Assembly: GCA_937877715.1 (NCBI GenBank)
Contig: CALEHW010000046.1
Span: forward strand, 89,690-153,689
Reading direction: 5' to 3'
Source: an uncultured Methylophaga sp.
GTDB taxonomy: Bacteria; Pseudomonadota; Gammaproteobacteria; GCF-002020875
DNA: 64,000 nt
In this document: in pieces, positions 4,299 through 51,309 of the stretch
Layout: each line of letters opens with the position of its first letter
Numbering within the stretch: the first letter of the stretch is position 1
The notes under the pieces: model-generated
Databases searched by the model: none
What the model was told of the DNA's origin: nothing
What the model saw: only the letters and a program-made list of their open reading frames with translations
Position numbers and translations under genes: made by a program

Positions 4299-5681
4299 CT
4301 ACATCAATCGAAGAAGATCATTGTATAGTGCCAGTGACATCAATCCAACCAGAAATACAATACCAAGCCTCTGACCAAAGGCCATCGCACTCTCGGAGAG
4401 TGGCTCACCGCGTACCCACTCTACCAGGTAGTAGAAGAGATGCCCCCCATCCAGCAACGGCACAGGCAACAGATTCAATACCCCCAGACTGACACTGATC
4501 AACCCCAGAAAAGAGAGAAACGGCACCACTCCACTCTCCATGGATATGCCAGCATAACGGGCGATACTGATTGGCCCACTCAACCCATCTGTAGAGGTTG
4601 CGCCCACGACCATGCGCCCCATCACCTGCAGGGTCATGGATGCCATCTCCCAGCTCTTCTCGGTGCCACGAACCAGCGCCTCCAGTGGGCCATATTGGGC
4701 CTCACGATAGTGCTCCTTGCGATATTGGGTCAGATCAACCGCTACACCAATCCTGCCGATTACCTCTTTTCCACTCTCTCCAGCGGGTAGCTCAACCTCA
4801 ACCATGGCTGGGGTCAGCTGTAGCGGGAAGATCACCCCATCACGCTCTATGATCAGCGACAACTGCTGCTCCGGACTCTCTCGCACCCACTCCACCCACT
4901 CTCTCCAGGAGGTTATCTCCTCACCCTCAACACTCAATATCAGATCTCCATCCTCAAGCCCGGAGAGCTCCGCCGCCCCGCCCGACACCAACTCGCCAAG
5001 TCTGGGAGGAATAGGGGGGCGGCTCATAGTGAATCCCAACTGCTCCAGCAGCTCCATCCCCTCAGGAATATTCTCCCTGAACGGATTTTGCAGGAGCAGT
5101 TTCTGCGCCACCCCGGAACTGCTGACTATCTCCAGAGGAATTTCATCCCCCAACACAACCGACCCAAGGATTCCCTCCAGCGCCTGCTGCCATATCCTTA
5201 CAGGCCTGCCACCAACCGAGATGATCTCATCTCCGGAGTGCATGCCGGACAGTGCAGAGATAGAGCCCTCATGAACCTCGCCAACTACAGGTTTCATCCC
5301 GCTGACCCCAACCATCTGAATCGAGCTGAATGCAATAATCGCAAAGATAAAATTAAACAGTGGTCCTGCCGCTACAATGGCTGCCCTGGCAGAGAGTGGC
5401 TGGGAGTCAAATGAGCGCTCCCTATCGGCCTCGGGGACCTCATCGTCACCACTCTCACCCAGCATCTTCACATAGCCGCCTAGGGGGAGAGCTGCAATCA
5501 CATATTCAGTACCATCCTTCTGACCAATTCTGCGCCACAACGGGCGTCCAAAACCTACCGAAAAACGCAGAACCTTCACCCCCACACGACGTGCCACCCA
5601 GAAGTGGCCAAACTCATGGACTGTTACCAGAATTCCGATGGCAACAACAAACGCTAGTAGCGCGTAGAGACCCGACCCCAT
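4299..5681 (-). CDS. rseP: RIP zinc metalloprotease RseP (site-2 protease)
   Basis: 460 aa with an HEFGHF zincin motif near the N-terminus, a PDZ-like middle and multiple TM helices. Sits in the dxr-rseP-bamA context. Confidence 0.9.
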   Translation of the reverse strand: MGSGLYALLAFVVAIGILVTVHEFGHFWVARRVGVKVLRFSVGFGRPLWRRIGQKDGTEYVIAALPLGGYVKMLGESGDDEVPEADRERSFDSQPLSARAAIVAAGPLFNFIFAIIAFSSIQMVGVSGMKPVVGEVHEGSISALSGMHSGDEIISVGGRPVRIWQQALEGILGSVVLGDEIPLEIVSSSGVAQKLLLQNPFRENIPEGMELLEQLGFTMSRPPIPPRLGELVSGGAAELSGLEDGDLILSVEGEEITSWREWVEWVRESPEQQLSLIIERDGVIFPLQLTPAMVEVELPAGESGKEVIGRIGVAVDLTQYRKEHYREAQYGPLEALVRGTEKSWEMASMTLQVMGRMVVGATSTDGLSGPISIARYAGISMESGVVPFLSFLGLISVSLGVLNLLPVPLLDGGHLFYYLVEWVRGEPLSESAMAFGQRLGIVFLVGLMSLALYNDLLRLM

Positions 5682-6875
5682 CTACCCTCTCCCCTTGATC
5701 AAAGCGGTGGCCACAGCGCGTGCCTCCTCATCCTTCGAGAATACCAGATCAAGATCTGTCACCTCCTCCACAGCAACCTCACTCATAGTCTGCTCAATAA
5801 CCTCTGCAATCTCCATATAATCAATCTCACCATTCAGAAAAGCTGCTACCGCAACCTCATTGGCGCCATTCAGTACCGTTGTTGCACTCCCTCCATGTAC
5901 CATTGCATCGATAGAGAGGCGCAGACATGGGTAACGCCCGAAATCTGGCTGCTCGAAATCAAGCTTCGCCACCTCGAACAGATCCAGATTCCCAACCCCT
6001 GAATCAATTCTCTCCGGCCAGCTGAGCGCATGTGCAATCGGCGTCCTCATATCTGGATTGCCCATCTGTGCCAGTACAGAACCATCGCTGTACTGCACCA
6101 TAGAGTGAATAATGCTCTGCGGATGAATCACCACCTCAATCTGCTCCGGCGCGGCCCCAAACAACCAGCAGGCCTCAATAAACTCCAGCCCCTTGTTCAT
6201 CATGGTTGCAGAGTCAACCGAGATCTTCCTCCCCATACTCCAGTTGGGATGGGCAACTGCCTCATCAGGAGTAACCGTCCCCAGAGTCTCTACTGCCCGT
6301 TTGCGGAAGGGACCGCCAGACCCAGTTAGCAGGATCTTCTCCACCCCCGCAGGAAACTTACCCAGAACCCCATGCTGAGGCAGGCACTGAAAAATCGCGT
6401 TATGTTCACTGTCGATCGGCAACAACTGCGCCCCATTGGCCACCACCTCCTCCATGAAGAGGTGACCAGTCATCACCAGAGACTCCTTATTTGCCAGCAA
6501 TATCCGCTTGCCTGCACGTACCGCAGCCAGCGTTGGTCGCAGACCTGCGGCACCAACAATTGCCGCCATTACCTGATCGACCGCGGGGGCAGATGCAATC
6601 TGCTCCATCCCCTCCACACCTGATAGTACCGTAGTCTCTGGAGCTATATCCCGCAGCAACCTCTCCAGCTGCTCCGCACCATCTGCCTCTGTAACTACTG
6701 CAAAATCAGGATGAAACTGCCCGCACTGCTCAGCCAGCAACTCAATCTGACTATGTGCTGTAAGTGCAACAACCCGATATTTGTCGGAATGTCTGGAGAT
6801 CACATCCAGCGTACTTCTGCCGATAGATCCAGTTGCCCCCAGGATGGCAACGCCCTGTATACGTCCCTCCCCCAT
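5682..6875 (-). CDS. dxr: 1-deoxy-D-xylulose 5-phosphate reductoisomerase
   Basis: 397 aa with N-terminal NADPH-binding [13 protein letters not shown], the Dxr hallmark. Sits between cdsA and rseP. Confidence 0.9.
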
Positions 6876-7690
6876 CAGAGCCCTCCAGAGACAATCAGGA
6901 TGGAGAGAAATATCGGGGCAGCAGCAGTCAGACTATCCACCCGATCAAGTATCCCACCATGGCCAGGGATCAGATTGCCACTATCCTTCAGCCCTGCACT
7001 ACGTTTGTAACTGCTCTCCACAAGATCACCGACTACCGAGAATATGACTATGCCCACTACAGCTAACATGAACAGCGGCAGCCCCATACCTGACCACCCC
7101 ATATAGAGATAGGCGACGGATGCAAAAACAGCTGAGAAACCGATCCCCCCAAGCAGCCCCTCTATACTCTTGCCCGGGCTTACATTGGGAGCAAGTTTTC
7201 TGCTGCCAAAACTGCGCCCAACCAGGTAGGCACCGATGTCGGCGCTCCAGATCAACAGCAGCAGAAAAAATAGCAGCTCAACACCCTGCTCCTGGTGATG
7301 AATCACCTCCAGTGAGCGCCATGCTGGAATCAATACAAATATCCCGGCAATACGGCTTGTAACCGGGGCAAAGAGCCACCCTGTCCCCGCAGGAAAGTGG
7401 CGTAACCAGAGGAGCGCGCCCCACCACCAGAACAGAGCCGCCCCCAGCAGCCACTCCACCGAAATAAAACGACTTAAATAGAAGAGGAGAACCAACAACA
7501 CCGTATACCATAGGTGAGGCCAGAACATGGTCTGCCCGGAGAGTCGTCCCCACTCCCATGCAGCCGGAATCAGCAGTAGCGCAAGCAAAATCGAGAAATT
7601 ATCTCCACGCAGATAGAGCAGAGCTAGCAGTAGTAGAGGTCCCAACACCAACGTACTGATTGTGCGCTGCGCAAAGGAGGATAGTTTCAC
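6875..7690 (-). CDS. cdsA: Phosphatidate cytidylyltransferase CdsA
   Basis: 271-aa polytopic membrane protein with the C-terminal CTP-transferase signature region (SxxKRxxGxKDxGxxIPGHGGxLDRxDS). uppS-cdsA synteny. Confidence 0.85.
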
Positions 7691-8427
7691 TATTTGATAC
7701 CTCCACCTAACTGCTCACTTGTGCGCCCAAAACGGCGCTGCCGCCCCCCAAAGGAGGAGACCGCATCCTCTAGGGCAGAGCGATCAAATTCGGGCCAGAA
7801 AAGATCAGAGAAATAGAATTCACAATAGGCCATCTGCCACAAAAGGAAATTGCTGACCCGCTTCTCTCCCCCAGTACGGATAAAGAGCTCCGGCTCCGGG
7901 AGATCACTCAGAGTTATCTTCTGCTGCACCATCTCCTGCGTGATCTGCTCTGGATCCACTCTGCCTGCAGCCACCTCCACACAAAGCTGCCGTGTCGCTT
8001 CTGTTATATCCCAGCGCCCACCGTAGTTTGCTGCAATATTCAGCGACAACGTGCGATTATTCTTGGTCAACTCCTCAGACTCGGCAATGGCACTCTGCAG
8101 TTTTTCGGGGAACCTGCTGCGATCCCCAATAATGCGGAGACGAATCCCGTTCTTGTGAAGACGCTTGACCTCTCGTTTCAGGGATGACATGAAGAGATCC
8201 ATCAGAAAAGAGACCTCCTCCTGTGGCCGCTTCCAGTTTTCCGTACTGAAGGCAAACAGGGTAAGCGCCTCAACTCCCATATCAATACAGGCCTCAACAG
8301 AGGAGCGTACTCTCTCCACCCCGCGCTTGTGGCCCCAGAAACGCAGTCTATTTTGCTGACGCGCCCAGCGTCCATTGCCATCCATGACAATGGCTATGTG
8401 GCGTGGAACTTGCTGACCTGAAGACAC
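7690..8427 (-). CDS. uppS: Ditrans,polycis-undecaprenyl-diphosphate synthase UppS
   Basis: 245 aa with the conserved IAIVMDGNGRWA cis-prenyltransferase motif. Confidence 0.9.
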   Translation of the reverse strand: MSSGQQVPRHIAIVMDGNGRWARQQNRLRFWGHKRGVERVRSSVEACIDMGVEALTLFAFSTENWKRPQEEVSFLMDLFMSSLKREVKRLHKNGIRLRIIGDRSRFPEKLQSAIAESEELTKNNRTLSLNIAANYGGRWDITEATRQLCVEVAAGRVDPEQITQEMVQQKITLSDLPEPELFIRTGGEKRVSNFLLWQMAYCEFYFSDLFWPEFDRSALEDAVSSFGGRQRRFGRTSEQLGGGIK

Positions 8428-36904: not shown

Positions 36905-37603
36905 ATGAAAAAATCACGCCTATCAACCAGCATCTCAATTCTATTGCTTGGTCTATCCCTCTCTATTTCCTCCCCATCAAGTGCTGATCTGAACTCGGCA
37001 AAACATGCCATTACCAAAGGGAATGGAGAACTTGCGATGATGGAGATGAGTCGACTAGCCGGCGAGGGAAACAGTGAGGCACAGTATGAACTTGGAAAAC
37101 TCTACGCGGAGGGCAGACTGACTGACCCCGACCCCAGCCGCGCCATGCTGGCACTCACCCTAGCAGTTGAAAATGGCTATCACCATGCTGAACAACTACG
37201 TAAAGAACAGCAGAAAAAAATTAATCTGATACAGCTAGCTGCCCTGCAGGAACAGTTGGGCATTCTGTTCCAGGATGGTGGAGCAGTTGCCATAGACCCA
37301 GCTCGTGCCACTGATTGGCTTGGAAAACGAACCCTGAACCCTGTCCCATTCACAAATGAGGAGCGCGGGGAGATGGCACGTAAAATTGGCAAAATATTTG
37401 AAGAGAAAATCTTCAGTTTTACCGCTGCGCACACCTGGTACACTCTGGCTGAGGCCTTTGGAACCGAGCGTGCAGCAAAAGATAGAAAACGGATGGAACT
37501 GTTCCTGCAGGACCAGAGCATCTCCCAATCCAGAAATGATGCTATTAGCAAATACAAAAGTTACCTAAAAAGTCGCAAGAAAATGGTGGATGGGAAGCTA
37601 TAG
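36905..37603 (+). CDS. Secreted Sel1-like/TPR repeat protein
   Basis: Signal peptide ([27 protein letters not shown]), then Sel1-like repeats ([18 protein letters not shown]...). The start is taken at the internal ATG, which has signal-peptide logic. Confidence 0.6.
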
Positions 37604-40600
37604 GGAAACCTCTCGCGTTATCTGGTGCATTGGGAAATAGAGTACAAGCTTCTGAGGGCGATCCTCCATCTGCCGCAGCACCTCACCGTAACGCTGTAGC
37701 TGCGGAGTATAACGAGCCACCTCCTCATCGAGAAACCCCTCTAGATCGCCACCGCTATGGCTACTGGTCTTCCAATCCACAATCCAACGAGTACCTCTAT
37801 CATCCACAAATGTTCTATCGATGGTGACATCAAGCGCTCTACCCTTTGTTCGCGTTGAGAGGCTCCACTCACTCCTCGCCTCCGCATGTTCAGAGAGCAA
37901 ATAGCGGCCAGTCTCATCCTCCAGCACCAGGCGGAGTGCCTCTATCACCCTGTCTGTTGCTCTCCCCAGGGTGTCTGATGCCACTCCAAGCTGTCTCAAT
38001 TGATTTTCCGCCCTACCACGAATCGACATCAGATCAGATTCAAGCCATTTACCGACACCATCTTCTGTGATCTGCTGCAGAATTGCGTGCACCACAGTCC
38101 CGACATGTGCTGCACTGGCAGCCGCCCACTGATAGATCACCCTCTCATCACCGGTCGACGGCTTACCTGTCTGGATCGGTTCCGGAGGTTGCGGACAGCT
38201 CCAGATATCTGCGGTACGCTGTGGATGAGCACTACCACGAAGAGTTCTCTTACCACCCCTAACAGATTCCACCTCAACCTCTCCAGAGTCAAACAGCCTC
38301 TGATAATCAACCTTCACAACAGGCCATAACTGCTCAAGCAGAGAACCTGACTGCGGCTTACCAAGCTCTCCTGCAGAGTTGATGTTTACAGCACCAAACA
38401 AATGCAGTTTGCGTTCAGCTCGGGTAGCCGCTACATACAGCAGCCGCGACAGCTCATTACGCCCACGTGACTGTTCGATCTTTCTAATATATCTTCCCAA
38501 CCTGTCACCATCACTGCCCTGCTCTGCGTGACGAACCGGAGAGAGCAGCAGCTGCATACTCTCCTCAGACTCATCCGACACCCCCGGAACCTCCATCCAG
38601 TGCAGCAGTTTTTGCTGCTCTCCTCTCGGCTTTCTGCCCAGACCAGGCAGGATTACCGTATCAAACTGCAGCCCCTTAGATTTATGGATAGTCATAACCT
38701 CAACCGTGGTAGAGGGGACATCTGCATCACTCTCCTCTGCTCTGCCGGAACGTACATTCTGCTTCTCCAACTGTTCCCGCAGCCTGTTGAAGTCAATAAG
38801 CTCCCCCCCTTGCCCCATCTTTCTCAACAATTCAAGGAATGAGTCCGCCTCTCTCTGAGACCGGCCAGCCACCCCAAGCCTCTGATGTATGGCTGCCCCT
38901 CCAAGCCTGATCCAGGCGTGCTCTACCCATGACTCCAATACAGTTTCGCCGCGTTCATCAAAAATGGAATTCAACCTCTCGCACAACCACTGGACCCTCT
39001 CAACCCCAATCGGTGAGAGCTCTGCCAGACGAGACTCATCATGCATCAACTCCCAAAGTGTACGATCCTCAGCATCAGCAGTTAGATGCAGAAGATCCTC
39101 CAGAGAGAGGCCACTCCAGGGAGCCCGCAACAGAGCCAACCACGCCTCTCTGTCAGCCTGGTGCAACAGGGCACGGGTCAATGCCAACATATCACGTACC
39201 AGTGGGCGCTCCCCAAGTGACTCAATCTCAACCGCACGGTAGCTAATCCCGTTACTGTAAAGCTCTCTGGCAATCTCGCTCAGATGGCTACGGGAACGTA
39301 TCAGGATGGCAATTTTCCCTCCCCTGTCACCTATCTCAGCAATTTCCATCCTGATCAGCTCAACCACTCTAGCCGCCTCCACCTCATAATCAGCCATCAA
39401 CGCAGGGTGAACCGTTACCGACTGTACTGTGGTTTGGGGTTTTGTGGAGATTGATTCGGAGTAGTGAATCGCCCCACTAAAGCGGTCAGATCGTAATGGA
39501 AATATAGAGTTGAAACTATCATTAAACCAGCTTACAACCCCTTCCTCAGAACGGAAATTTGCTGCCAGCTTCCTGTATTCTAGGTGCAGGCCGCCAACCC
39601 CCTCGTTTATCGCTTTTATAAACAGCCCCACCTCAGCATGGCGAAAACGGTAGATAGACTGCATGGGGTCTCCCACCAGAAAGAGGGTGCGACCAGAGCC
39701 ATCATTTGCCCACTCTGCAGTCAGGCGACTCATAAGGTCGAATTGACCATGGGATGTATCCTGAAACTCATCAACCAGAATATGGGAGATCTGATGGTCC
39801 AGACGGAGCGCCAGATTGGTAGGCCGCTCCTCACTCCCAAGCGCCTGAAGAGCCCGTCTGGCAATCTCGTTGTGATCCACCACACCCTTCTCTTCAAACC
39901 ACCCCATCAACTCAATTTGTGCCATCAACAGCACCTGAAACAGGGAGGTGATGGTGTCCCACTGTGCATCCTCATACTGCACCGGCGGCAACAAGGGAAC
40001 CTGCTGGATTGCTGTAGCCGCCTCATGGTCTGACTCAACTCTCTGCAACAGAGAGAACATCCGCTGTTTTAGAACCTTGCCCTCTGCCCCCGGTGGAAAA
40101 CCGCTATTCTTGTTCCAGCTATTCTCTGACGCCCTGAACACCCCATCTTTTTTTAGAAATAGCGAGGCAATCCCCTGCCACTGCAGAATGAAAGATGGCT
40201 CTCCAGATGGTAGCTGACCAATCCCGCTACATGCAGCGACCTCGGCACTTTTTCCAATACTGTTCACAACCTCTGCTGCAGAAGATGCCAGCTCCACCAG
40301 TTGAGAGACACCATCCCTGCCTAACGCTTGCAGCAGTCCATCCCTGGCATTCTGTAGAGATTTCTCTACTGCCGAGCAGAGTGTTGCCTCCAGTGATTCC
40401 CGATCAATACCACCACCTGCACCTCTCGCCACATGAGGCAGCCACTGATCACGGTGGCCAAGCATCTCTGTCAGCATTCTCTCAAGTTGAGAGACATCGT
40501 TGTCGAGCCATGCCAGCAGTTGTGCTACTGCCTCACCATCCCTGCTCTCAAGTCGCTGAATAGTGCGTCGTGCCGCCCCAACAAATGCCTCCTCTGCATC

Positions 40601-41044
40601 ATCACTAATTCCCGGAACTCCCCCAAATGCAGCCATAACCGGCATCTGCCGAACCAGCTTTGCATTCAGACTATCCATGGTGCGAATCTCCAGCCTGCCC
40701 GGATTGGTCAACAGATTCCAGTTCAGGTTACGATCCTGTTGCAACACCTTGTTGGCCAACCCCCAAGTTGTAGCCAGATACGGCTCTTTCGGTTTCTGTT
40801 TACTGGCAGCCATCATCAATGACTCAAGCAGTCTGGTACGCATCTCACCAGCCGCCTTGCGGGTAAAAGTAATAGCCAGAATCTCCTCCGGATGGTTAAC
40901 CCCTGCCAACAGCGAGAGGAAGCGCTGTATCAGCAACTCGGTCTTTCCAGAACCTGCCGGGGCCTGAACAATTACCGAGAGCCGAGGGTCCAGCACCTCT
41001 TCACGAACTGCTCTGTCCTCACTCATAAGCCTGGAGTTACTCAT
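37598..41044 (-). CDS. addA: AddA-type helicase-nuclease (UvrD-like helicase with a C-terminal RecB-family nuclease)
   Basis: About 1149 aa. N-terminal UvrD/Rep Walker A (VQAPAGSGKT) and helicase motifs, then a C-terminal PD-(D/E)XK nuclease signature (RWIVDWKTS). The start is chosen 2 nt after the addB stop. Confidence 0.75.
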   Translation of the reverse strand: MSNSRLMSEDRAVREEVLDPRLSVIVQAPAGSGKTELLIQRFLSLLAGVNHPEEILAITFTRKAAGEMRTRLLESLMMAASKQKPKEPYLATTWGLANKVLQQDRNLNWNLLTNPGRLEIRTMDSLNAKLVRQMPVMAAFGGVPGISDDAEEAFVGAARRTIQRLESRDGEAVAQLLAWLDNDVSQLERMLTEMLGHRDQWLPHVARGAGGGIDRESLEATLCSAVEKSLQNARDGLLQALGRDGVSQLVELASSAAEVVNSIGKSAEVAACSGIGQLPSGEPSFILQWQGIASLFLKKDGVFRASENSWNKNSGFPPGAEGKVLKQRMFSLLQRVESDHEAATAIQQVPLLPPVQYEDAQWDTITSLFQVLLMAQIELMGWFEEKGVVDHNEIARRALQALGSEERPTNLALRLDHQISHILVDEFQDTSHGQFDLMSRLTAEWANDGSGRTLFLVGDPMQSIYRFRHAEVGLFIKAINEGVGGLHLEYRKLAANFRSEEGVVSWFNDSFNSIFPLRSDRFSGAIHYSESISTKPQTTVQSVTVHPALMADYEVEAARVVELIRMEIAEIGDRGGKIAILIRSRSHLSEIARELYSNGISYRAVEIESLGERPLVRDMLALTRALLHQADREAWLALLRAPWSGLSLEDLLHLTADAEDRTLWELMHDESRLAELSPIGVERVQWLCERLNSIFDERGETVLESWVEHAWIRLGGAAIHQRLGVAGRSQREADSFLELLRKMGQGGELIDFNRLREQLEKQNVRSGRAEESDADVPSTTVEVMTIHKSKGLQFDTVILPGLGRKPRGEQQKLLHWMEVPGVSDESEESMQLLLSPVRHAEQGSDGDRLGRYIRKIEQSRGRNELSRLLYVAATRAERKLHLFGAVNINSAGELGKPQSGSLLEQLWPVVKVDYQRLFDSGEVEVESVRGGKRTLRGSAHPQRTADIWSCPQPPEPIQTGKPSTGDERVIYQWAAASAAHVGTVVHAILQQITEDGVGKWLESDLMSIRGRAENQLRQLGVASDTLGRATDRVIEALRLVLEDETGRYLLSEHAEARSEWSLSTRTKGRALDVTIDRTFVDDRGTRWIVDWKTSSHSGGDLEGFLDEEVARYTPQLQRYGEVLRQMEDRPQKLVLYFPMHQITREVSL

Positions 41045-43688
41045 CTCTCTCAACCTCGTACTCCACACGACACAATGGCTCCAGTCCACAGTACTGACAA
41101 CTGCTCTTCCCTTTTAGAGGGTCAACCACAGCAATTCCCTCTCTGAACTCTCCTGCCAGCTCTGTTACAACTCTCTCCCACTGACTTATTTGCTGCTCCC
41201 ACCCCTCACTGACAACCACCTTTCTCTTGCCACCCCAGCCCTTGCCATCGGCCCCCTCAAGCAGACTCTCCTCCTGCTGCTCACCTTTATATGCAACCTC
41301 ACTAACCTGAATCTGCCCAAACAGTACTGCCGCAACATCATCCAGCAGAGTGGTATAGAGTGGTAACTGGGGCTCCTCCGGGCGCTCCCCCTGCCATCCT
41401 GATCTACTGACCTTGCCACTTTTGTAATCAATCAGAATCCGCCTTCCATCATCCAGTCGATCAACTCGATCCATCTTCACAGAGATAGAGAGCCCATCCA
41501 GAATAACTTTGTGCAGACGCTCCATCTCCTCAACCCTGAAGCTGGTTACACGCCCCCGATCAAGCTCCAGAAAACGCATTGCAAGCTGAGCCAAACGGGC
41601 CGATTCATTAACTGCAAAACCATCCCCCATACGGTCCTGACGAGAGAGACGGAACTTCTCGACTGTCTCCTCTGCTGCTGCTGCAACCAGAGCGGTCAAC
41701 TCCTGCTCACTCAGTTGATTCAGCCGGTCTGACGAGAGCCCCAACCTCTCCCAGCACCGCTCAAGCAACCCATGTATCAGTGTGCCTCTCTCGCGTGGAT
41801 CAAGTCCCAACTGCTCGCTTTCCATGCTATCTGCCTGCAGTCGGTGGCGCACAAAAGCTCTGAATGGACACTGTGACTGGTTTGCAAGAATCGAGCTGCC
41901 TCCGCGCACCCTGCTTCCACGCCCCACAGATAGTGTCCCCTCACTAATTTCCTCCAGCACCAGACTATTGCCATCAAGCCACCACTTTTCAACTGTGGTT
42001 TTCAACCCTAGGCTTCTGTAATCCATCTGAGGAATATCATCGACTAAGGGGGTCTCCCGTAGCCCCTCCTCAGCCCCATCCTCACTACTCTCAGATAGAG
42101 TGAAGAAAACTTGGTCTGCTGCAATTGCGAATCCAGCCACCATCTCTTCTGCAATCTTCAGACTATTGGCCCTGTCTACTGCAGGCACCTGTCTGCGCTG
42201 CCACTCCAGTGGCAAAAATGGCGACAGCTCCGCAGTTGATGGCCAATTCCGATCCTCCATCCCCATTACCCAAAGTGCATCGTAATGTACTCCACACGCC
42301 TCTTCCGGAGTCAGAATATCTACAACTGCACTCTCCCCTTGTGGGGGCATATCCATTCTGGAGAGAATCTGTCTTAATCCAGAGAGGGCCTCCGCAAGGG
42401 AGAGGATTCCAGTAAAGTCTCCAACTGCAGAAAAACGGTCGAGACCATCTCTCCAGCCATCATAGGCAGATAGCGAGATATCACTCTTCTCCCCGTTCTC
42501 CGCCCACTCAAAAAATGAGAGTAGATGGCTAAAACGTTCAGCCCACTCTGTGGTGGTCAACCGTGACTCATTTAACTCAAGCTCCTCCACCGCATGCAAG
42601 GCACCAAGAAAGCGTGGAGCCTGAAGACCAGACTCTCCATCATCCTTATCAAAGAGCCGGACCAGGGTAGCAGTATAGACATCAGGGTTACGCCAACGCC
42701 TTAGCTGAAGATCAAATGTTGATCTTGCCCCCATCTCTGTCCCCTGTAGCAACCAGGGTGAACGCAACAGCGCAGACGCCTCCGCCAGAGGCAGCCCTCT
42801 CTGTACCATCCTTATCAACTGCAGTGCAGTATGGATACGTGGATCCTGCAGCAGAGCCGTACCTCTATTAAACCGATATGGAAGTTCCATGCCAGATTTT
42901 GCCTGGAGCAGAGTTGCAGGAGCGAGAATGGTTCTGAACAGTTTCTCAATACGGTGCCGTCTTCCATACAGGCCGGGTACTACCACAGCCAACCTGTGGT
43001 CCGGACAGTCCTGCAGGTACTCTCTTAACCAGTAGGCAACCGCTATCTCCTCCTCACTCTCACTAGGCAGAATCGTCTTTACTGCCACACTGCTTGTAGC
43101 TACACCCTCCTCACTTCTCAACTCACTACCAAGCTTATTGAGTGTCTGCAGAATCTGTCGTTCAGCTCTACTCCATTGGGACTCACCATATGTATAGACA
43201 GTCTCAGGAGTGGCAATATCTCCAGAGAGCAGCAGTTTTACCGCCCATTCAGCAAGACTGGCACGCTCCAATAGCCCTCTCTGTTGGCACTGCTCCGCAA
43301 ACCTTGATTGCCACTGCTGAAACAGATCCAGCTCCTGCAGATGTGAGTCCTTAACCAGACTCTGGCCATCCTCTCTCCACTGATGAAATATTCTATTGGC
43401 AGATACCGCGTGGTCTACCAGCTCGCCCTTCCGCAAAAATGAACCATCGTCTAAACTTTCCTGCGGAATAGTCTGCTGCCATATGATCCTCTCCTGTTCT
43501 GGCGTCAACAGGTGCGAAAGTTCAGTTCCTCGCTGCAACTGTTCATTCCACTGCTGCTGAATCCAGGCCTGAATAGAAAAAACTGGGGGGGTCTCCCATA
43601 CAGCAACCCCTTTTTGCAACTGCTCATCACCCCACCGGTCCCTGAGATATCGAGCCTGTCTGGCAGTTGCAGTTAGAGTAAGATTCAT
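41037..43688 (-). CDS. addB: AddB-type nuclease subunit with a C-terminal Fe-S cysteine cluster
   Basis: About 883 aa with no full helicase motor. It has a C-terminal PD-(D/E)XK motif (ILIDYKSGK) and CQYCGLEPLC (CxxCx5C) as in AddB iron-staple domains. The start is taken at the conserved-looking MNLTLTATARQARYL. The track ORF continues 88 codons upstream through low-quality sequence. Confidence 0.7.
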   Translation of the reverse strand: MNLTLTATARQARYLRDRWGDEQLQKGVAVWETPPVFSIQAWIQQQWNEQLQRGTELSHLLTPEQERIIWQQTIPQESLDDGSFLRKGELVDHAVSANRIFHQWREDGQSLVKDSHLQELDLFQQWQSRFAEQCQQRGLLERASLAEWAVKLLLSGDIATPETVYTYGESQWSRAERQILQTLNKLGSELRSEEGVATSSVAVKTILPSESEEEIAVAYWLREYLQDCPDHRLAVVVPGLYGRRHRIEKLFRTILAPATLLQAKSGMELPYRFNRGTALLQDPRIHTALQLIRMVQRGLPLAEASALLRSPWLLQGTEMGARSTFDLQLRRWRNPDVYTATLVRLFDKDDGESGLQAPRFLGALHAVEELELNESRLTTTEWAERFSHLLSFFEWAENGEKSDISLSAYDGWRDGLDRFSAVGDFTGILSLAEALSGLRQILSRMDMPPQGESAVVDILTPEEACGVHYDALWVMGMEDRNWPSTAELSPFLPLEWQRRQVPAVDRANSLKIAEEMVAGFAIAADQVFFTLSESSEDGAEEGLRETPLVDDIPQMDYRSLGLKTTVEKWWLDGNSLVLEEISEGTLSVGRGSRVRGGSSILANQSQCPFRAFVRHRLQADSMESEQLGLDPRERGTLIHGLLERCWERLGLSSDRLNQLSEQELTALVAAAAEETVEKFRLSRQDRMGDGFAVNESARLAQLAMRFLELDRGRVTSFRVEEMERLHKVILDGLSISVKMDRVDRLDDGRRILIDYKSGKVSRSGWQGERPEEPQLPLYTTLLDDVAAVLFGQIQVSEVAYKGEQQEESLLEGADGKGWGGKRKVVVSEGWEQQISQWERVVTELAGEFREGIAVVDPLKGKSSCQYCGLEPLCRVEYEVERDE

Positions 43689-43782
43689 CCGACAGACCTT
43701 ATCACCATGGAAAAAATGGATCGACAGGAAATCACAAATCAGTCCATAATTAGAAACCCCTAATACAACGGAATGCAATACG

Positions 43783-44877
43783 ATGAGTACAACTCCAGAT
43801 GACAGAGGCCAGATTCGTGAAATCCGCATAAACCCTATTGTTCCCAGTGAATCTGTACTGGTGGCAACCGCCCGCAGTATGCGGCCGATCAAGGAGGAGC
43901 AGCAGGCCCCACGGGATACCCGTAGCCATGTGGAGAGCTGCCCTTTCTGCAAGGGAAATGAGGAGAAGACCCCACCTGCAATTGTTACTTATCCGGACGA
44001 TGAGTCATGGAAAATTCGTGTTGTAGAGAACCTCTTTCCTGTCCTTGGCAAGGCTAGTGATGAATCTCAGAAAAACTTGAATTTTGGTTTGCAGTCAGCA
44101 ATTGAGGGATATGGTCACCATGAGGTGATGATCGATCACAGCAACCATGGGGCTGTAGTCAATGAGATGAGTGAGGAGCATCTAACCTTACTGTTTGGTG
44201 CCTATCAGGAGAGGATGCGTAAGCTGTATGAGAGTGAGAGAATTCGCTTTGTCCTGGTTTTTAAAAATTACGGCCCTGCCGCTGGTGCCAGCATCCGCCA
44301 CACGCATAGCCAGATTATTGCCATGCCGGTGGTACCACAGAATGTCCATGACGAGGTAATAAACAGTGCTGCTCACTACCAAAAACATCATCAATGCATA
44401 TTCTGCACCCTGATTGACGAGGCCCTCACCTTCGAGACCACAATATATGATCGTCACTCAGGTGAGGTGCGCAGAAAAATAAATGTGGGGCAGTATGTAG
44501 TCGACAGATCAGACCACTTTATCGCTATCAAGCCATTTGCCAGTCGCTTTGAGTGGGAAGTGCATATTTTGCCACTGGTTCATCAAAGTGATTATCTGAA
44601 CTCCTCTGCAGAGGAGTTGGCAGACTTCGCAAAAATTGTAAAACGGACTATGCAGAGACTCGATGGGGTGCTTGGTGGAGTACAGTACAACTACTTCCTC
44701 CACTCAATCCCCCACAATGAGGATTGCGAAAGCTGTCACGCAAGTTTCCACTGGCACCTCGAGATCGTACCTCGCACCAGCATCCCTACAGGATTTGAAC
44801 TTGGGTCAGGCCTCTTTGTAAATACCATAAGCCCGGAACAGGCTGCTGAACAGCTACGTAATACAGTAGTGGGGTAA
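43783..44877 (+). CDS. GalT-family (HIT superfamily branch III) nucleotidyltransferase, a candidate APS:phosphate adenylyltransferase (ADP-sulfurylase) or Ap4A phosphorylase-like enzyme
   Basis: 364 aa with a CPFCKGNE zinc-knuckle motif in the first half, the GalT/Apa-type active site RHTHSQII (HxHxQ) and a degenerate second half-domain (HWHLEIVPR). Confidence 0.7.
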   Translation: MSTTPDDRGQIREIRINPIVPSESVLVATARSMRPIKEEQQAPRDTRSHVESCPFCKGNEEKTPPAIVTYPDDESWKIRVVENLFPVLGKASDESQKNLNFGLQSAIEGYGHHEVMIDHSNHGAVVNEMSEEHLTLLFGAYQERMRKLYESERIRFVLVFKNYGPAAGASIRHTHSQIIAMPVVPQNVHDEVINSAAHYQKHHQCIFCTLIDEALTFETTIYDRHSGEVRRKINVGQYVVDRSDHFIAIKPFASRFEWEVHILPLVHQSDYLNSSAEELADFAKIVKRTMQRLDGVLGGVQYNYFLHSIPHNEDCESCHASFHWHLEIVPRTSIPTGFELGSGLFVNTISPEQAAEQLRNTVVG

Positions 44878-44966: not shown

Positions 44967-45380
44967 ATGACTACAACAACCAAGATGAGTGATGAAGAGT
45001 GCCGCTTTTGTAATGCCAGCCCAAATCGACGGATTTTGATTGAAGGGAAGTACGGCTTTGCAGCACTGGATCGCCATCCAGTCAATGAGGGGCATTTCCT
45101 GGTGATCCCCTACCGCCATTTTCCAGATTACTTTGACATAGGTGATGAAGAACGTGAGGAGTTATGGTCACTTGTGGCTCAGGGGAAAAAATTAATCGAT
45201 GAGAAGCACAACCCAGACGGCTATAACATTGGCATCAATGTAGGCGAGTCTGCTGGCCAATCGGTACCCCACCTACATATCCACGTTATTCCACGCTATA
45301 AAGGTGACGTAGAAACCCCCAAAGGTGGGGTCCGTGGAGTTGTTCCAGAACAAAAACTCTATACCCTTCAACCAGATTAA
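44967..45380 (+). CDS. HIT-family (Hint-like) nucleotide hydrolase/transferase
   Basis: 137 aa with a canonical histidine triad PHLHIHVIPR and an N-terminal CRFC zinc motif. Lies directly downstream of the GalT-family gene. Confidence 0.75.
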   Translation: MTTTTKMSDEECRFCNASPNRRILIEGKYGFAALDRHPVNEGHFLVIPYRHFPDYFDIGDEEREELWSLVAQGKKLIDEKHNPDGYNIGINVGESAGQSVPHLHIHVIPRYKGDVETPKGGVRGVVPEQKLYTLQPD

Positions 45381-45796: not shown

Positions 45797-46318
45797 TTAC
45801 TCCGTCAATTCTACCATGTTCTCAATTTCTGGCTCTGGTTCGATCGGTCCACCCTCTTTGATCTCCTCATCCGTTGCATCACGCACGGTGAGAATCTCGA
45901 GCTTGAACAGAAGGTCCCGACCACAAAGTGGGTTGTTGCCATCAATAGTCAGACTCTTCTCATCGATTCGGGTAACCAGAAAGTTCTTGGTATCACCTTT
46001 ATCATTCTCCATGACAATGGTGGTTCCAACCTCATGGTACTCCTCAGGAACATTCTCCAGGTAATCAGTGATCACTAGAGACTCATCACGCTCGCCGTAG
46101 AGCAGGCTCCCATCAATGGGAACCTCAATAACCTCGCCAATAGAGCATCCCTCCAGGGCCTCCATAATGGGCTCAGAGAGAACATCATTGTGGCCATGAA
46201 TGTAACCAATCGGGAATTCCACCGCTGCCAACACCGCCCCACTCTTCTGGTCTAGAACCTGGTAGGTCAGCTCAACAAGCTTGTTTTTCTGAATCGTCTC
46301 ACTCATAACAGTCTGCAC
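45797..46318 (-). CDS. slyD: FKBP-type peptidyl-prolyl cis-trans isomerase, SlyD-like (lacks the His-rich tail)
   Basis: 173 aa. YIHGHNDVLSEPIMEALEGCSIGEVI aligns with SlyD YLHGHGSLISGLETALEGHEVGDKF. The IF-domain insertion and DGNNPLCGRDLLFKLEILTVRDATDEEI align with SlyD DGNHMLAGQNLKFNVEVVAIREATEEEL. Confidence 0.75.
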   Translation of the reverse strand: MQTVMSETIQKNKLVELTYQVLDQKSGAVLAAVEFPIGYIHGHNDVLSEPIMEALEGCSIGEVIEVPIDGSLLYGERDESLVITDYLENVPEEYHEVGTTIVMENDKGDTKNFLVTRIDEKSLTIDGNNPLCGRDLLFKLEILTVRDATDEEIKEGGPIEPEPEIENMVELTE

Positions 46319-46320
46319 AA

Positions 46321-46671
46321 CTAGAAAATAGAGGCACTAAAGATCTTGACCCCATCCTTTTCATAGCCTAGTACCAATCTGCCAAGCCACTCACCCTTCT
46401 TCTCGGTACTTCGCACCCTAAACAGAACAGTGACATGCTCGTCACGACGAATCATTCCCAGATAGTCTGACTCCTCGGAGAGGTTTCGTGCCAGTTGACT
46501 TCTGGCAAACTGCTTTCCAACCTCCATCTCATTGAGACCAAACAAAAGATCCTGGGAGAAGTGACGGGTAAACATTCCATACTCACCCTCATTGGAATAC
46601 TTAATCAAGTCATTCCACATTGGAAGTCCAACTTCCAAAATCTCCTCATCACTATCGTCAATAATATTCAT
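46321..46671 (-). CDS. Hypothetical 116-aa acidic protein downstream of aprA, translationally coupled to the SlyD-like gene
   Basis: Protein-like composition. Its stop abuts the SlyD-like start. No family recognised. Confidence 0.5.
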   Translation of the reverse strand: MNIIDDSDEEILEVGLPMWNDLIKYSNEGEYGMFTRHFSQDLLFGLNEMEVGKQFARSQLARNLSEESDYLGMIRRDEHVTVLFRVRSTEKKGEWLGRLVLGYEKDGVKIFSASIF

Positions 46672-46722
46672 TCAAAAATCCTGAATTCCTAAACTTACAG
46701 CCATCACTATCCTCGGACAGCC

Positions 46723-46769
46723 CAATAAAAAGATCAACAAACGAGCATTACTACGATCGAATGTTGATC
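46723..46769 (-). terminator. Possible partial terminator/attenuator after aprA
   Basis: On the transcribed strand: 8-bp stem gatcaaca/tgttgatc with a 22-nt loop, followed by TTTTTATT, 27 bp after the aprA stop. Confidence 0.35.
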
Positions 46770-46795
46770 CCTTATTAAACTAGTCCATCAGAGGA

Positions 46796-48688
46796 TTAGG
46801 CTGCCTCGCCTTCCTGTCCCTCATGATCCTCATCGAACAGGTGATACAGTGGAGCCTTCTCCATAGTGTACTCACCAGTCTTTGGATCACGGCGAGAAAC
46901 TGTCAGAACATGCCAGTTCTTATCATCCAGCTTCATTGCGTCACCACGGTAGTAGTAACCAGGCCAGCGAGTTTCCTTACGGAACAGGGTGTGCTGCATT
47001 ACAGACTCGGAGGCAAGCAGACGATGCTTCAGCTCCCATGCGCGCAGCAGCTCATGAATATCAGAAGCAGCAATCTTCTCCATATCCTCTTCCAGAGTCT
47101 TCATCTTCTTCAGACCGATGTTCAGCAGCTTATCGTTAGTCATGTAGTTCACCGTTACACCACCAGCGTACTCGTCCATCATCTTCTGCATACGATCAAG
47201 ACCTTGACGTGGGTTGATGTAGTTAGGGTTAACAGTTCCAGCAACGATATCGTTACGGTAAACTTTATAGTGCTCCATTGGTTTGTAGATCTCTTCCTTG
47301 CGATCATTGATCTGCTTCTCAGAGATGGTAATTCCATTGGCCTTACCATCATCGATGTACTTGCAAGCAGCCTTGGCAGCCAAACGACCTTCGGTGAATG
47401 AACCAGAAGAGAACGCATGTGGTGTACCACCAACCGCATCACCAGCACCAAACAGACCTTCTACAGTAGTCATACGGTTGTAACCCCAGAAATACTCATC
47501 AGGAGAAACATCCTCAGGACCAGAACACCATGCACCACAACCGGTAGCGTGTGAACCCATTACATAAGGCTCAGACGTAGTCAGCTCAGGGTTCTCATAC
47601 TTTGGATTTACATCAGTTGCAGCCCAAAGTACAGCCTGACCAACTGTCATACCCAAGAAGTTGTGCCAGCCAATCTCCTCAAGGTGAGGATCCTGGAATG
47701 AGTGCATAGTAACCATGTGAATCGGGCCACGTCCTGCATTGACCTCGTTGATCAGAGCATGGTTACGCAAACATGTTGGGATTGGCTTATGAGACAAGTG
47801 CTGGTTTTCTGTATCCAGATATTCCTTACCAACCATCTCACTCAGAGCCGGGAACCACTTGGACTCATACTCCTCACCATTACAGTTCTGGGTGTAAGTC
47901 TTAAGGTGTAGGAAGTAAGCACCAACCGGGCCGTAACCATCCTTGAATCGAGCAAGTACGATACGGTTTTCCATCTGGGTCATCTTCGCACCAGCCTGAA
48001 TCATCAGACCATATGCAGATCCAGAAGACCACGGTGCATACCATACACGTCCAGCACCCTCACCAACGGAGCGAGGCTTGAATATGTTAGATGCACCACC
48101 AGCACCAACAATAACAGTCTTGGACTTGAATACGTGGTAGTTACCAGTACGTACGTTGAAACCAACAGCACCAGCAACACGATTCTCTTTGCTCTCATCC
48201 ATCAGCAGGTGAGTAACACAGATACGGTTGTAGACCTTGTCAGCAGACTTGGTAGCAGCCTCAGCCACAAGCGGCTTGTAGGACTCACCGTGAATCATGA
48301 TCTGCCAGCGACCCTCACGCAGATAGGCGCCAGTCTTCGAGTCACGCATGATAGGCATGCCCCACTCCTCGAACTGGTGTACTGCGGAGTCAACATGACG
48401 CGCCATGTCAAAAGCAAGATCCTCACGAACCATTCCCATCAGGTCCATACGTGCGTAGCGAACGTGATCTTCCGGATTATTCTCTCCGAAACGTGTTCCC
48501 ATGTAGCAGTTAATTGCATAAAGACCCTGTGCAACTGCACCGGAACGGTTGATATTTGCCTTCTCAGCAATAACGATTTTCTTGTCTTGGCCCCAGAAGC
48601 GCGCCTCCCAGGCTGCACCAGTACCGCCGAGCCCTGCGCCCGCGACTAGAACATCGATATTGTCTTCTACGATAGTTTTGTAAGCCAT
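46796..48688 (-). CDS. aprA: Adenylylsulfate (APS) reductase alpha subunit
   Basis: 630-aa FAD flavoprotein with a dinucleotide-binding N-terminus (VLVAGAGLGGTGAAWEA) and fumarate-reductase-family fold. Immediately preceded by aprB, so the stop and start are tightly coupled. Confidence 0.9.
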   Translation of the reverse strand: MAYKTIVEDNIDVLVAGAGLGGTGAAWEARFWGQDKKIVIAEKANINRSGAVAQGLYAINCYMGTRFGENNPEDHVRYARMDLMGMVREDLAFDMARHVDSAVHQFEEWGMPIMRDSKTGAYLREGRWQIMIHGESYKPLVAEAATKSADKVYNRICVTHLLMDESKENRVAGAVGFNVRTGNYHVFKSKTVIVGAGGASNIFKPRSVGEGAGRVWYAPWSSGSAYGLMIQAGAKMTQMENRIVLARFKDGYGPVGAYFLHLKTYTQNCNGEEYESKWFPALSEMVGKEYLDTENQHLSHKPIPTCLRNHALINEVNAGRGPIHMVTMHSFQDPHLEEIGWHNFLGMTVGQAVLWAATDVNPKYENPELTTSEPYVMGSHATGCGAWCSGPEDVSPDEYFWGYNRMTTVEGLFGAGDAVGGTPHAFSSGSFTEGRLAAKAACKYIDDGKANGITISEKQINDRKEEIYKPMEHYKVYRNDIVAGTVNPNYINPRQGLDRMQKMMDEYAGGVTVNYMTNDKLLNIGLKKMKTLEEDMEKIAASDIHELLRAWELKHRLLASESVMQHTLFRKETRWPGYYYRGDAMKLDDKNWHVLTVSRRDPKTGEYTMEKAPLYHLFDEDHEGQEGEAA

Positions 48689-49173
48689 TAGTGATATACC
48701 CCTTCTTTCATGATTAGGCCATTGGACTCAAGGGTGTGCAAACCACCTTCATCGAGACGAATGTATTTTGGTTCGTTAAACAGTAGCAGGTCATTATCAC
48801 GATGCTCCTGAGTTGGAGCAGGGACATCAGCAAGCTGTGGAATTTCCTGTCCCCATGGCTTTGTTGTAATAGGCGCCAGCAGATTCAGATCAGTCTCACC
48901 ATTGCGAGACTTGATGCGCCATGCGATAACACCCTTCTCCTCATCACGGTCCACACGTACAGAGTGACCCAGAGGGGCAAAGTCGGCATAACCACGAACA
49001 TCAATTGCATGGTGAGGACATGCCTTCACGCATGAGTAGCACTCCCAACACATATTAGGCTCAATATTGTAGGCACGACGATATTTATCATCGATATGCA
49101 TGATATCTGATGGACAGATATCAACACAGTGTCCACAACCGTCGCAACGGGTCATATATACAAAAGTAGGCAT
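48688..49173 (-). CDS. aprB: Adenylylsulfate reductase beta subunit (2x[4Fe-4S])
   Basis: 161 aa with two ferredoxin motifs (CDGCGHCVDICP and CWECYSCVKACP) and the AprB-specific C-terminal tail. Confidence 0.9.
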   Translation of the reverse strand: MPTFVYMTRCDGCGHCVDICPSDIMHIDDKYRRAYNIEPNMCWECYSCVKACPHHAIDVRGYADFAPLGHSVRVDRDEEKGVIAWRIKSRNGETDLNLLAPITTKPWGQEIPQLADVPAPTQEHRDNDLLLFNEPKYIRLDEGGLHTLESNGLIMKEGVYH

Positions 49174-49213: not shown

Positions 49214-50035
49214 TCAGTAGTGGCTAGGCTCTTCGCGCTTAATGCCAAGACCCATGTTGGATGGGTTTTTACCCATGTACTCAGGGATATCTGGAAATCT
49301 TGCATGCGTAGCAGCAGCAGACAGGTCAGGTATCTCAGGCAGATTCTCATTAGAACCATCAGCATGAACTGTACGCTTGTTATAAGCCGCAGCAGGCTTG
49401 AAGAACATATGGGAGAACTTAGACCAGTAAACGCCGCCGAATAGTGAAGCTGTAGAAATGATCACTAGGGCAAACCATGCTCCGGTGCCACCACCAGTTA
49501 GTGACCAACCTATAGCTGCTGTTGATGTAGCCATCAGCGAGAGGCTGAACATATCCCTTCTAAGCTTGATATTTGTCCATGTATTACCTTCTGCAGCCAC
49601 ATCAACCTTGAATACAAACCAGAACCACCAGCTACCTACGAACAAACTGATAGCACCCAGATGCCAGAACAAGTTCAATGTTGCATCGGCAGCATTATCA
49701 CCAAAAATCATCATTGCAGTTGCTGCATTAAATGAGATAAAACCATACATGGTCAACAGATGTACCAGCCTACGAGTCGGGTTACAGAACTCTCCAGACA
49801 GCGCCACATCAGTAACAACAGTCTTGACCAGAATTGAGGCAGCAGGAGCAGTTTTTGTTGCATTCTGCTTATCTTTTGCAGCTTTCTCGAAGAAGTACTG
49901 AGCACTCTTCTTGTGCATCATATCCAGCACAGTCATTACAATAACTAGCGCAATCATTACGATCACATACGTCTGCATAGACGCATATGTGATGCCGGCA
50001 TCCACTAATGACTGGATAGGGGTATTACTTAACAT
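49214..50035 (-). CDS. aprM: APS reductase membrane anchor AprM-like protein
   Basis: 273 aa with about 5 predicted TM helices and a hydrophilic C-terminal tail. It sits between sat and aprB, as aprM does in sat-aprMBA loci of purple sulfur bacteria. Confidence 0.65.
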   Translation of the reverse strand: MLSNTPIQSLVDAGITYASMQTYVIVMIALVIVMTVLDMMHKKSAQYFFEKAAKDKQNATKTAPAASILVKTVVTDVALSGEFCNPTRRLVHLLTMYGFISFNAATAMMIFGDNAADATLNLFWHLGAISLFVGSWWFWFVFKVDVAAEGNTWTNIKLRRDMFSLSLMATSTAAIGWSLTGGGTGAWFALVIISTASLFGGVYWSKFSHMFFKPAAAYNKRTVHADGSNENLPEIPDLSAAATHARFPDIPEYMGKNPSNMGLGIKREEPSHY

Positions 50036-50091: not shown

Positions 50092-51309
50092 TTACTGGGC
50101 AGAGTGCCCCTTCATCTCAATCTTTACATTCTCATCATCACTAAGACTTGCATAGTAGTCCTGAAGCACCTTGGCAACCTCTGGACGACTGAAGGTAGCA
50201 GGAAGCTCCTCACCCTCAGACAACATCTTGCGTACCTTGGTACCAGACAACAGAATACGATCATCCTTGCCATGAGGACAGGTCTTCATAGAAGCCATTC
50301 CGTCACAGGCATTACACCAGAAGGTCCAGTCGATCTTCAGTGGCTTAGTCTCCAGTGCGCCCTCAGGGATTTCGTCAAAGATCGACTGTGCATCAAAGGG
50401 GCCATAAAAATCGCCGACACCAGCGTGGTCACGACCAACAATCAGGTGCGAACAGCCGTAGTTCTGGCGGAATACGGCGTGCAACAGCGCCTCACGGGGG
50501 CCTGCAAAACGCATATCCAGCGGATAACCTGCCTGTACAACACTGTTGGGAACAAAATAGTTATCAATCAGAGTCTGGATCGCCTCAGAGCGAACCTCTG
50601 CAGGGATATCACCCTTCTTCAGCTTACCCAGTGTGGAGTGAACCAGAACACCGTCCAGAGTCTCTACCGCAATTTTGGCAAGATACTCATGAGAGCGATG
50701 CATTGGGTTACGGGTCTGGAATGCCGCAATAGTATTCCAACCCTTTGACTCGAATAACGCACGGGTCTGCTCAGGTGTCATGAATTGCTCACCATAAGTC
50801 TCGGGGAATCCACCCAGAGAGAGGACCTTGATTGGACCGGCAAGATTCACCTCTCCCTGATCCATAACCATCTGCACACCTGGATGCTCCAGATCAGTGG
50901 TCTTGTATACAGACATGCACTCATGCTCTTTATCAATACCGTATTTCTCGGTAACTGTCATGGTTGCAACAATATTCCCGCTTTCCTCATCAAACAGAGC
51001 AACATCAGAACCCTCATGGGTGTTGTCGGCAGTGGCACTGTCAGTAGAGATGGTTACCGGAATTGGCCAGAACAGGCCGCTCTCCATCTTGTATGAGTCA
51101 CAAACACCCTTCCAGTCAGCGTGGTTCATGAAACCGTCAAGTGGGGTAAACCCACCGATACCCAGCATATAGATATCACCAGCCTCACGTGAGGTAATCG
51201 TTACCTTGGGCAGCGTCTCTGCGCGTGCCTTCTCATCCTCGAGGGCGATCCCCTCAAGCAGTAGCGGCTTCAACTCACCGCCACCATGTGGTTTAACTAA
51301 ATTTGACAT
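50092..51309 (-). CDS. sat: Sulfate adenylyltransferase (dissimilatory-type ATP sulfurylase)
   Basis: 405 aa with ATP-sulfurylase motifs [11 protein letters not shown] and GRDHAGVG. Heads the sat-aprM-aprB-aprA operon. Confidence 0.9.

Follow-up and report, generated by a model that had tools for sequence, protein, structure and literature searches.

Which proteins link adenosine 5′-phosphosulfate (APS) reductase to the membrane in bacteria that oxidise sulfur? The AprM-type (lineage I) enzyme converts sulfite and adenosine monophosphate (AMP) to APS in sulfur oxidisers and SAR11-like bacteria, and the route by which its electrons pass to the membrane has yet to be settled. No cofactor site can be recognised in AprM, and papers published from 2008 to 2023 only suggest that it serves as an anchor or an entry point (PMC2211403, PMC3779200, PMC10504309). 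An apr locus was analysed within 64,000 nucleotides (nt) of DNA from an uncultured Methylophaga sp. (contig CALEHW010000046.1; the whole stretch is referred to below as the window). A gene for a protein of 116 amino acids (46321..46671), for which the name X116 is used here, follows aprA and precedes a gene for a SlyD-like FKBP-type peptidyl-prolyl isomerase (FKBP).

An original prediction, made on the window, had put this gene forward as a possible accessory factor for the APS reductase system. That proposal was supported: X116 lies right after aprA in the aprM-aprB-aprA loci of every close clade, and a functional link to AprMBA is very likely. No description of X116 or of the downstream FKBP was found in the searchable literature on apr loci, and X116 is an undescribed conserved companion, probably a helper or a subunit, of the AprM-type enzyme. 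Because it is strongly constrained, accompanies aprMBA and persists even where genomes are streamlined or reduced, it is a candidate for the missing component of electron transfer to the membrane. The enzyme concerned operates in SAR11 and SUP05, which are among the most abundant bacteria of the sea, as well as in chemosynthetic symbionts and purple sulfur bacteria.

Conservation and gene order of X116

The X116 open reading frame (ORF) starts with ATG, has an AGGA sequence 8 nt 5′ of this codon, and encodes a protein with an isoelectric point (pI) of 4.8 (21 Asp + Glu against 14 Lys + Arg) and no cysteine. The N-terminus is acidic (MNIIDDSDEEILE) and lacks a hydrophobic leader. The earlier description of a well-formed, acidic ORF with no signal peptide was therefore borne out, and the strand, which had been left unstated, is minus. 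The stop codon had also been said to abut the FKBP start directly. This nearly held for the GTG at 46318, which the TAG precedes by 2 nt, and did not hold for the ATG at 46306, which is 14 nt on and is supported by an orthologue (MSETIQ in the window aligns with MDNTIQ in Ca. Ruthia).

Homologues of X116 were found in a large protein database as 1579 clusters at 90% identity. All of those named by their sources were called 'hypothetical protein'. Identity to the window protein was 68-78% in Chromatiales, Thioalkalivibrio, Thiobacillus, Hyphomicrobium and Magnetococcales, and an alignment of 22 sequences contained 52 invariant columns. The ratio of nonsynonymous to synonymous substitution rates (dN/dS) was 0.043 against a relative 94% identical (L001); against remoter relatives, synonymous sites were saturated with the protein still more than 70% identical. 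X116 is under strong purifying selection. A spurious ORF is ruled out by this dN/dS value and by the 1579 homologous clusters, and X116 is confirmed as a real gene. Across 80 loci, the median identity to the window was 88% for AprA, 84% for AprB, 72% for X116, 64% for FKBP and 51% for AprM. By this measure, X116 is more constrained than either the membrane anchor or the chaperone.

The family is narrow. At E ≤0.001, 264 of 1.84 billion representatives at 50% identity were matched, and many of these were fragments. X116 alone matched no curated family model in Pfam or NCBIfam. Whether one protein or a profile of 27 members served as the query, Pfam, NCBIfam and the PDB returned no more than noise (RlmH, E 0.018; an Hsp90 fragment, E 0.017), and the matches of the X116 family in a PDB profile search were likewise at chance level. 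The protein could thus be placed in no known family by sequence, as the original prediction had stated. It had been allowed that X116 might turn out to be a common housekeeping domain of unknown function (DUF) with no link to sulfur genes, or to lack conservation; what was found was a narrow family with low dN/dS, adjacent to apr genes in every close clade.

Synteny was compared in the best-scoring 80 loci of each scan. The scan behind the gamma/beta set used one genome per species and returned at least 587 loci, from which these 80 were fetched. The order aprM-aprB-aprA-X116-FKBP was essentially invariant: X116 had aprA as its immediate upstream neighbour in 76 of 78 loci. An aprM gene lay farther upstream in 71 of 72, and X116 was followed by FKBP in 73 of 77. 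The two exceptions to aprA adjacency were L018, which carries an insertion, and L058, where a second X116-FKBP copy is present. In L018 (4537-6000), approximately 1.45 kb is inserted between aprA and X116 in a locus that is otherwise typical. L058 is a contig of a metagenome-assembled genome (MAG) with two X116-FKBP pairs (1221-2098 and 6001-6866). The X116 that follows aprA there is 52% identical to that of the window, and the stand-alone copy, 4 kb off, is 72% identical. The second pair is either a true duplication of the two genes as a unit or an assembly chimera.

A second, deeper clade of X116 proteins, 44-53% identical to the window protein, was recovered from marine metagenomes with approximately 31% GC and looks SAR11-like. 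The gene order in these loci was HIT-aprM-aprB-aprA-X116, with the HIT gene immediately upstream of aprM and an aprA-X116 gap of 20-45 nt. X116 was directly preceded by aprA in 57 of 57 loci, and aprM was upstream in 12 of 12. No FKBP gene was found downstream of X116 in any of 60 marine low-GC loci. The gene after X116 in one of them (L089) encodes a multi-pass membrane protein and is separated from X116 by 243 nt.

For the converse test, loci were retrieved through AprM and not through X116. All five SUP05-clade contigs obtained in this way (two from the Bathymodiolus thermophilus symbiont, two from Ca. Ruthia and one complete 1.18-Mb genome) carried X116 (59-62% identity) and FKBP (52-58%) after aprA. 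The sole AprM-retrieved locus without X116 was that of L173, a Gallionellaceae MAG contig from which aprBA was missing too. Here, sat-aprM is followed by an antitoxin/ParE toxin pair (4456-7731) with no aprB-aprA-X116-FKBP; the apr locus may have been disrupted or rearranged there, or the contig may be misassembled. Adjacency to aprM-aprB-aprA was thus consistent in the gamma/beta, marine and SUP05 loci.

Homologues of X116 at 32-39% identity were found in unrelated contexts with neither apr nor FKBP genes. Their neighbours, one case each, were a DsrC-like gene, an AcrB-type gene, BlaR-type and ADH genes, and a toxin-antitoxin pair; the contigs of five further divergent members (P0190, P0266, P0176, P0129 and P0125) were too short for context. 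Since the distant homologues sit in non-apr contexts, the apr-linked X116 proteins form a specialised group within an NTF2-like family that is slightly wider. Coupling of X116 to the SlyD-like gene, as originally predicted, held in gamma/beta sulfur oxidisers and SUP05 and was absent from the marine SAR11-like loci. As FKBP is never downstream in those loci and aprA always adjoins X116, the constant partner of X116 is the AprM-type APS reductase, not the chaperone. X116 could also be used as a marker in metagenomes for telling AprM-type from Qmo-type loci.

On balance, we lean towards X116 being a non-catalytic, protein-binding accessory of the AprM-type enzyme that aids the assembly of AprBA or its docking on AprM. 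Both the assembly or docking role and the physical contact with Apr proteins are what we infer. More tentatively, X116 could be a stoichiometric subunit that bridges AprB to AprM for the passage of sulfite electrons to the quinone pool. If that were true, the enzyme of purple sulfur bacteria, SUP05, chemosynthetic symbionts and SAR11 would be AprMBA-X and not AprMBA. X116 is kept in the AT-rich SAR11-like loci that have no downstream FKBP and in the reduced 1.18-Mb genome; its high conservation and its retention in streamlined genomes fit an assembly factor or a subunit alike.

Predicted fold and conserved residues

The structure of X116 was predicted with AlphaFold2 on the 22-sequence alignment. 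The model had a mean predicted local distance difference test score (pLDDT) of 85.6 and a predicted template modelling score (pTM) of 0.79. It comprised a long helix (residues 8-28), two short helices (40-45 and 48-57) and a four-stranded antiparallel sheet. The three N-terminal helices were packed on the curved sheet in the alpha+beta cone of an NTF2-like fold. Matches at the level of fold were to proteins with 3-17% sequence identity. Scaffold proteins were among the top matches (TraM of pIP501, DotI, IcmL and Tim44), and others were to SnoaL, ketosteroid isomerase, scytalone dehydratase, LinA and designed ligand binders. Among NTF2-like sequence families, three distant members out of 27 diverse X116 family members touched DUF3887 (best E 0.0031), and no match to a family of the Pfam clan, such as SnoaL or DUF3887, exceeded its gathering threshold.

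It had been proposed beforehand that an NTF2-like fold would suggest small-molecule binding. The fold came out as proposed; the deduction need not follow from the fold alone. X116 might bind a small molecule or act as an enzyme, either buffering or handing over sulfite, AMP or APS or catalysing a side reaction, and we regard this as unlikely. The NTF2-like cone often forms a ligand pocket, and several of the matched structures are enzymes or ligand binders. Both apr-linked clades retain several polar residues (R75, R76, E48, E50, K53, Q54 and E94), and the basic pair R75-R76 could bind an anion. Against this, the alignments contained no metal motif and no Asp/His/Tyr catalytic set conserved across the family. 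No Asp or His is the same throughout the family: H79 does not vary within the gamma clade, but the marine proteins often have Tyr there. Y31 is invariant. The known NTF2-like enzymes mostly use hydrophobic substrates, unlike sulfite or nucleotides. X116 also has no cysteine for sulfur chemistry, and the 72% median identity extends over its full length, which suggests a constrained surface and not a pocket alone.

A sulfur-relay protein of the DsrC, TusA or DsrE type would need an active-site cysteine. The window X116 is cysteine-free and the gamma alignment has no conserved cysteine column, and a sulfur carrier or Fe-S scaffold is ruled out on this ground.

The conservation pattern fits protein binding better than small-molecule binding. 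The motif G[LA]NE[VI]E[VL]GKQ[FW] at residues 45-55 was near-invariant in both apr-linked clades and was lost in the distant non-apr homologues. It lies within the sole low-confidence stretch of the model (residues 41-60, pLDDT 63-69), as expected for a segment that becomes ordered on binding a partner. Residues 45-55 are a candidate interface on the predicted model.

Expression and surroundings of the locus

The spacer between aprA and X116 is 124 nt in the window. In the gamma/beta loci, the median was 156 nt for aprA-X116 and 15 nt for X116-FKBP. Folding of 46660-46810 gave z = -5.0, and a hairpin followed by a T-run was present in 49 of 75 orthologous aprA-X116 spacers. The same stem sequence, (A)nAGATCAAC...GTTGRTC(T)n, was found in 27 of the 75, in distant taxa (L004, L005, L008, L013, L015, L023, L025, L033, L035, L036, L048, L051, L069, L079 and others); on both strands of the 1.7 Mb of loci, the pattern had 77 matches, as against the 27 spacers with the stem. 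The flanking A- and T-runs give the hairpin the look of a bidirectional terminator. It was missed by the terminator scan because its loop is longer than the limit of that scan. An Rfam scan of the window locus including the hairpin gave no match, and a simple promoter scan of the locus gave no sites.

The long spacer with its hairpin, together with the short X116-FKBP spacer, suggests that in gammaproteobacteria X116 and FKBP are expressed through read-through or from a promoter of their own, and that their levels are lower than those of AprBA and partly independent of them. Published transcript data for A. vinosum could be compared with this. Alvin_1118-1123 are sat, AprM, AprB, AprA, a 116-amino acid hypothetical protein and a putative peptidyl-prolyl isomerase (PMC11267869 Table S2). 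Alvin_1122 is taken as the X116 orthologue on account of its length and position and because other Chromatiaceae (L010, L027 and L064) carry the gene. The gene is transcribed (published data re-tabulated in PMC11267869). On pyrite, the fold changes of Alvin_1118-1123 were 0.29, 0.56, 0.37, 0.41, 0.15 and 0.54. On elemental sulfur, sat-aprMBA fell to approximately 0.1-fold, with Alvin_1122 at 0.47 (not significant) and Alvin_1123 at 1.03 (PMC11267869 Table S2). The weaker repression of Alvin_1122 on elemental sulfur fits a terminator-like hairpin in the aprA-X116 spacer. A. vinosum is amenable to genetics, and Alvin_1122 occupies the position equivalent to that of X116. Both the hairpin and the partly independent expression speak for X116 as a lower-abundance assembly factor.

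The same observations could be read in favour of X116 as a partner or co-chaperone of the SlyD-like FKBP in a general folding role, with its adjacency to apr incidental. X116 is tightly spaced to FKBP and set apart from aprA by the longer spacer, often with the hairpin; elemental sulfur affects Alvin_1122 and Alvin_1123 less strongly than sat-aprMBA; and the second X116-FKBP pair of L058 stands away from aprA. The marine clade argues otherwise, with its short aprA-X116 gaps and its consistent lack of a downstream FKBP. Apart from the L058 copy, X116 proteins of the close clades were never met away from aprA, and the partner of a housekeeping chaperone should belong to a family far larger than one of 264 clusters at 50% identity. 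This explanation is considered quite improbable. A regulatory or sensory part in adjusting apr expression or activity, for example as an anti-sigma-like or ligand-sensing NTF2 module, is more improbable still, since X116 lacks DNA-binding and transmembrane domains as well as any partner regulator domain, no conserved regulator gene lies beside it in the loci compared, and its retention in highly reduced genomes, which shed most regulation, argues against a purely regulatory role.

The features of the locus are collected in Table 1.

Table 1. Features of the apr locus in the window
Feature	Coordinates	Strand	Evidence and remarks
sat, dissimilatory ATP sulfurylase, first cluster gene	50092..51309	minus	ORF; 65-91% identical to PUA_2 + ATP-sulfurylase genes upstream of aprM in related loci
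aprM, membrane anchor of lineage-I APS reductase	49214..50035	minus	Homologues named 'Adenylylsulfate reductase membrane anchor'
aprB, APS reductase iron-sulfur beta subunit	48688..49173	minus	ORF; 74-89% identical to gene before aprA in 80 loci
aprA, APS reductase alpha subunit	46796..48688	minus	TIGR02061, 1070.7 bits against a cutoff of 641.75
Terminator-like hairpin, aprA-X116 spacer	46727..46769	minus	GATCAACA...TGTTGATC then TTTTT; fold z = -5.0
X116	46321..46671	minus	116-amino acid ATG-started ORF; NTF2-like predicted fold, acidic, Cys-free, cytoplasmic, unannotated family
SlyD-like FKBP-type peptidyl-prolyl isomerase	45797..46306	minus	169 amino acids from ATG 46306; start in ORF list is GTG 46318

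Orthologues of aprB carried Fer4 and APS-reductase_C Pfam domains. Weak NCBIfam matches linked AprM to QmoC (E 0.0034) and TcuB (E 0.0011), in each case to the membrane domain, and on this basis AprM may be related to the heme-b membrane module of QmoC/TcuB. The FKBP protein matched NCBIfam PRK10737 (SlyD) over residues 9-156 (E 1.2e-18) at 67.7 bits, which is below the equivalog cutoff of 174, and gave no Pfam (FKBP_C) match at E ≤1. Its homologues were named SlyD (JGI) or peptidylprolyl isomerase by their sources. The C-terminal tail is acidic and contains neither His nor Cys. By its sequence, the window protein appears to belong to a divergent SlyD subfamily.

An ORF of 114-119 amino acids with no Pfam match (M[AD]IDFT[EQ]SEI...) lies directly after FKBP in the SUP05 clade (L169 10310-10654; L171 10197-10556; L174 10201-10560) and has no counterpart after the window FKBP. 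In the window, a 137-amino acid HIT-family gene (44967-45380, plus strand) and a 364-amino acid GalT-like gene (43783-44877, plus strand) lie just past the FKBP gene; the latter belongs to HIT branch III and carries the Pfam domains GalP_UDP_transf and Ap4A_phos_N. A HIT gene recurs near the apr loci of L006, L023, L024, L064, L079, L080 and others, and in L089 it is at 3318-3716. Such HIT and GalT-like genes near apr could encode APS-converting enzymes, of the APS phosphorylase or ADP-sulfurylase type. SAR11 is reported to lack sat (PMC5069961). Past the HIT and GalT-like genes, approximately 2 kb from the FKBP end of the cluster, two large overlapping ORFs of 1163 and 971 amino acids (37598-43952, minus strand) are putatively helicase-nuclease-like. 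A UvrD-type helicase gene was found a few kb from sat in the SUP05-clade loci L169, L171 and L174 (positions 1 to approximately 1400). Helicase-type genes near apr in the SUP05 clade and, putatively, in the window suggest some wider conservation of the neighbourhood.

Proposed role and comparison with known systems

In our proposal, the AprM-type (lineage I) membrane-associated APS reductase has X116 as an accessory protein of its own. X116 would be a small cytoplasmic NTF2-like module that acts by protein binding. It would aid the assembly of new AprB and AprA and their docking onto AprM, or would stay bound as a small extra subunit. In the sulfur oxidisers among gamma- and betaproteobacteria, the SlyD-like FKBP, co-expressed with X116, may assist the same maturation step as a lineage-specific folding helper. 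The hairpin after aprA would keep the X116-FKBP pair below the very abundant AprBA and partly independent of it.

Several points weigh against this proposal. To our knowledge, no 13-kDa subunit has been reported in purified APS reductases. The case for the binding of X116 to AprA, AprB or AprM is an indirect one. NTF2-like folds also house enzymes and ligand binders. In many gammaproteobacteria, X116 is parted from aprA by the terminator-like hairpin and by partly uncoupled transcription. AprM homologues formed at least 7998 clusters, compared with 1579 for X116, a count confounded by protein length and by the extent of the search. The synteny counts cover the best-scoring 80 loci per scan, and more than 500 further genome matches lie outside them. 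Published descriptions of the A. vinosum sat-aprMBA operon name no fifth component (PMC3779200).

Compared with the NTF2-like superfamily (SnoaL, ketosteroid isomerase, NTF2, VirB8/TraM and DotI), X116 is predicted with four strands only. No catalytic residue set known from the superfamily was seen to be conserved in X116, and no member of the X116 family matched a Pfam or NCBIfam model above its threshold. A genomic link to APS reductase was found in no described NTF2-like family, and X116 has one.

SlyD works with HypB in hydrogenase maturation. A likeness to that pair can be seen in the SlyD-like FKBP directly downstream of X116, which is conserved with it in gamma/beta sulfur oxidisers and SUP05. 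The arrangement differs in that the tail of the window FKBP has no His- or Cys-rich metal-binding region and in that the marine X116 loci have no downstream FKBP.

SdhE (SDHAF2) is an assembly factor for the SdhA/FrdA family, to which AprA belongs, and CoxG recruits CO dehydrogenase to the membrane. Both are proteins of approximately 10-15 kDa, free of cofactors and encoded beside their enzyme, which act in maturation or membrane placement through protein contact, and X116 may be likened to them by analogy of role only. Their folds (a helical bundle for SdhE, SRPBCC for CoxG) differ from that of X116 and there is no sequence similarity. AprA binds flavin adenine dinucleotide (FAD) non-covalently. 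X116 as an SdhE-like flavinylation factor is ruled out by the different fold and the lack of sequence similarity.

In the literature, the unit is described as sat-aprMBA or aprMBA, with AprM as the presumed anchor (PMC3779200, PMC2211403, PMC3333476, PMC10504309). X116 differs from AprM and from the Qmo proteins (QmoABC) in being soluble, in its unrelated sequence and in its position downstream of aprA and not upstream of aprB. Like aprM, it has no recognisable cofactor motif and is a constant companion of lineage-I aprBA (PMC3779200, PMC2211403).
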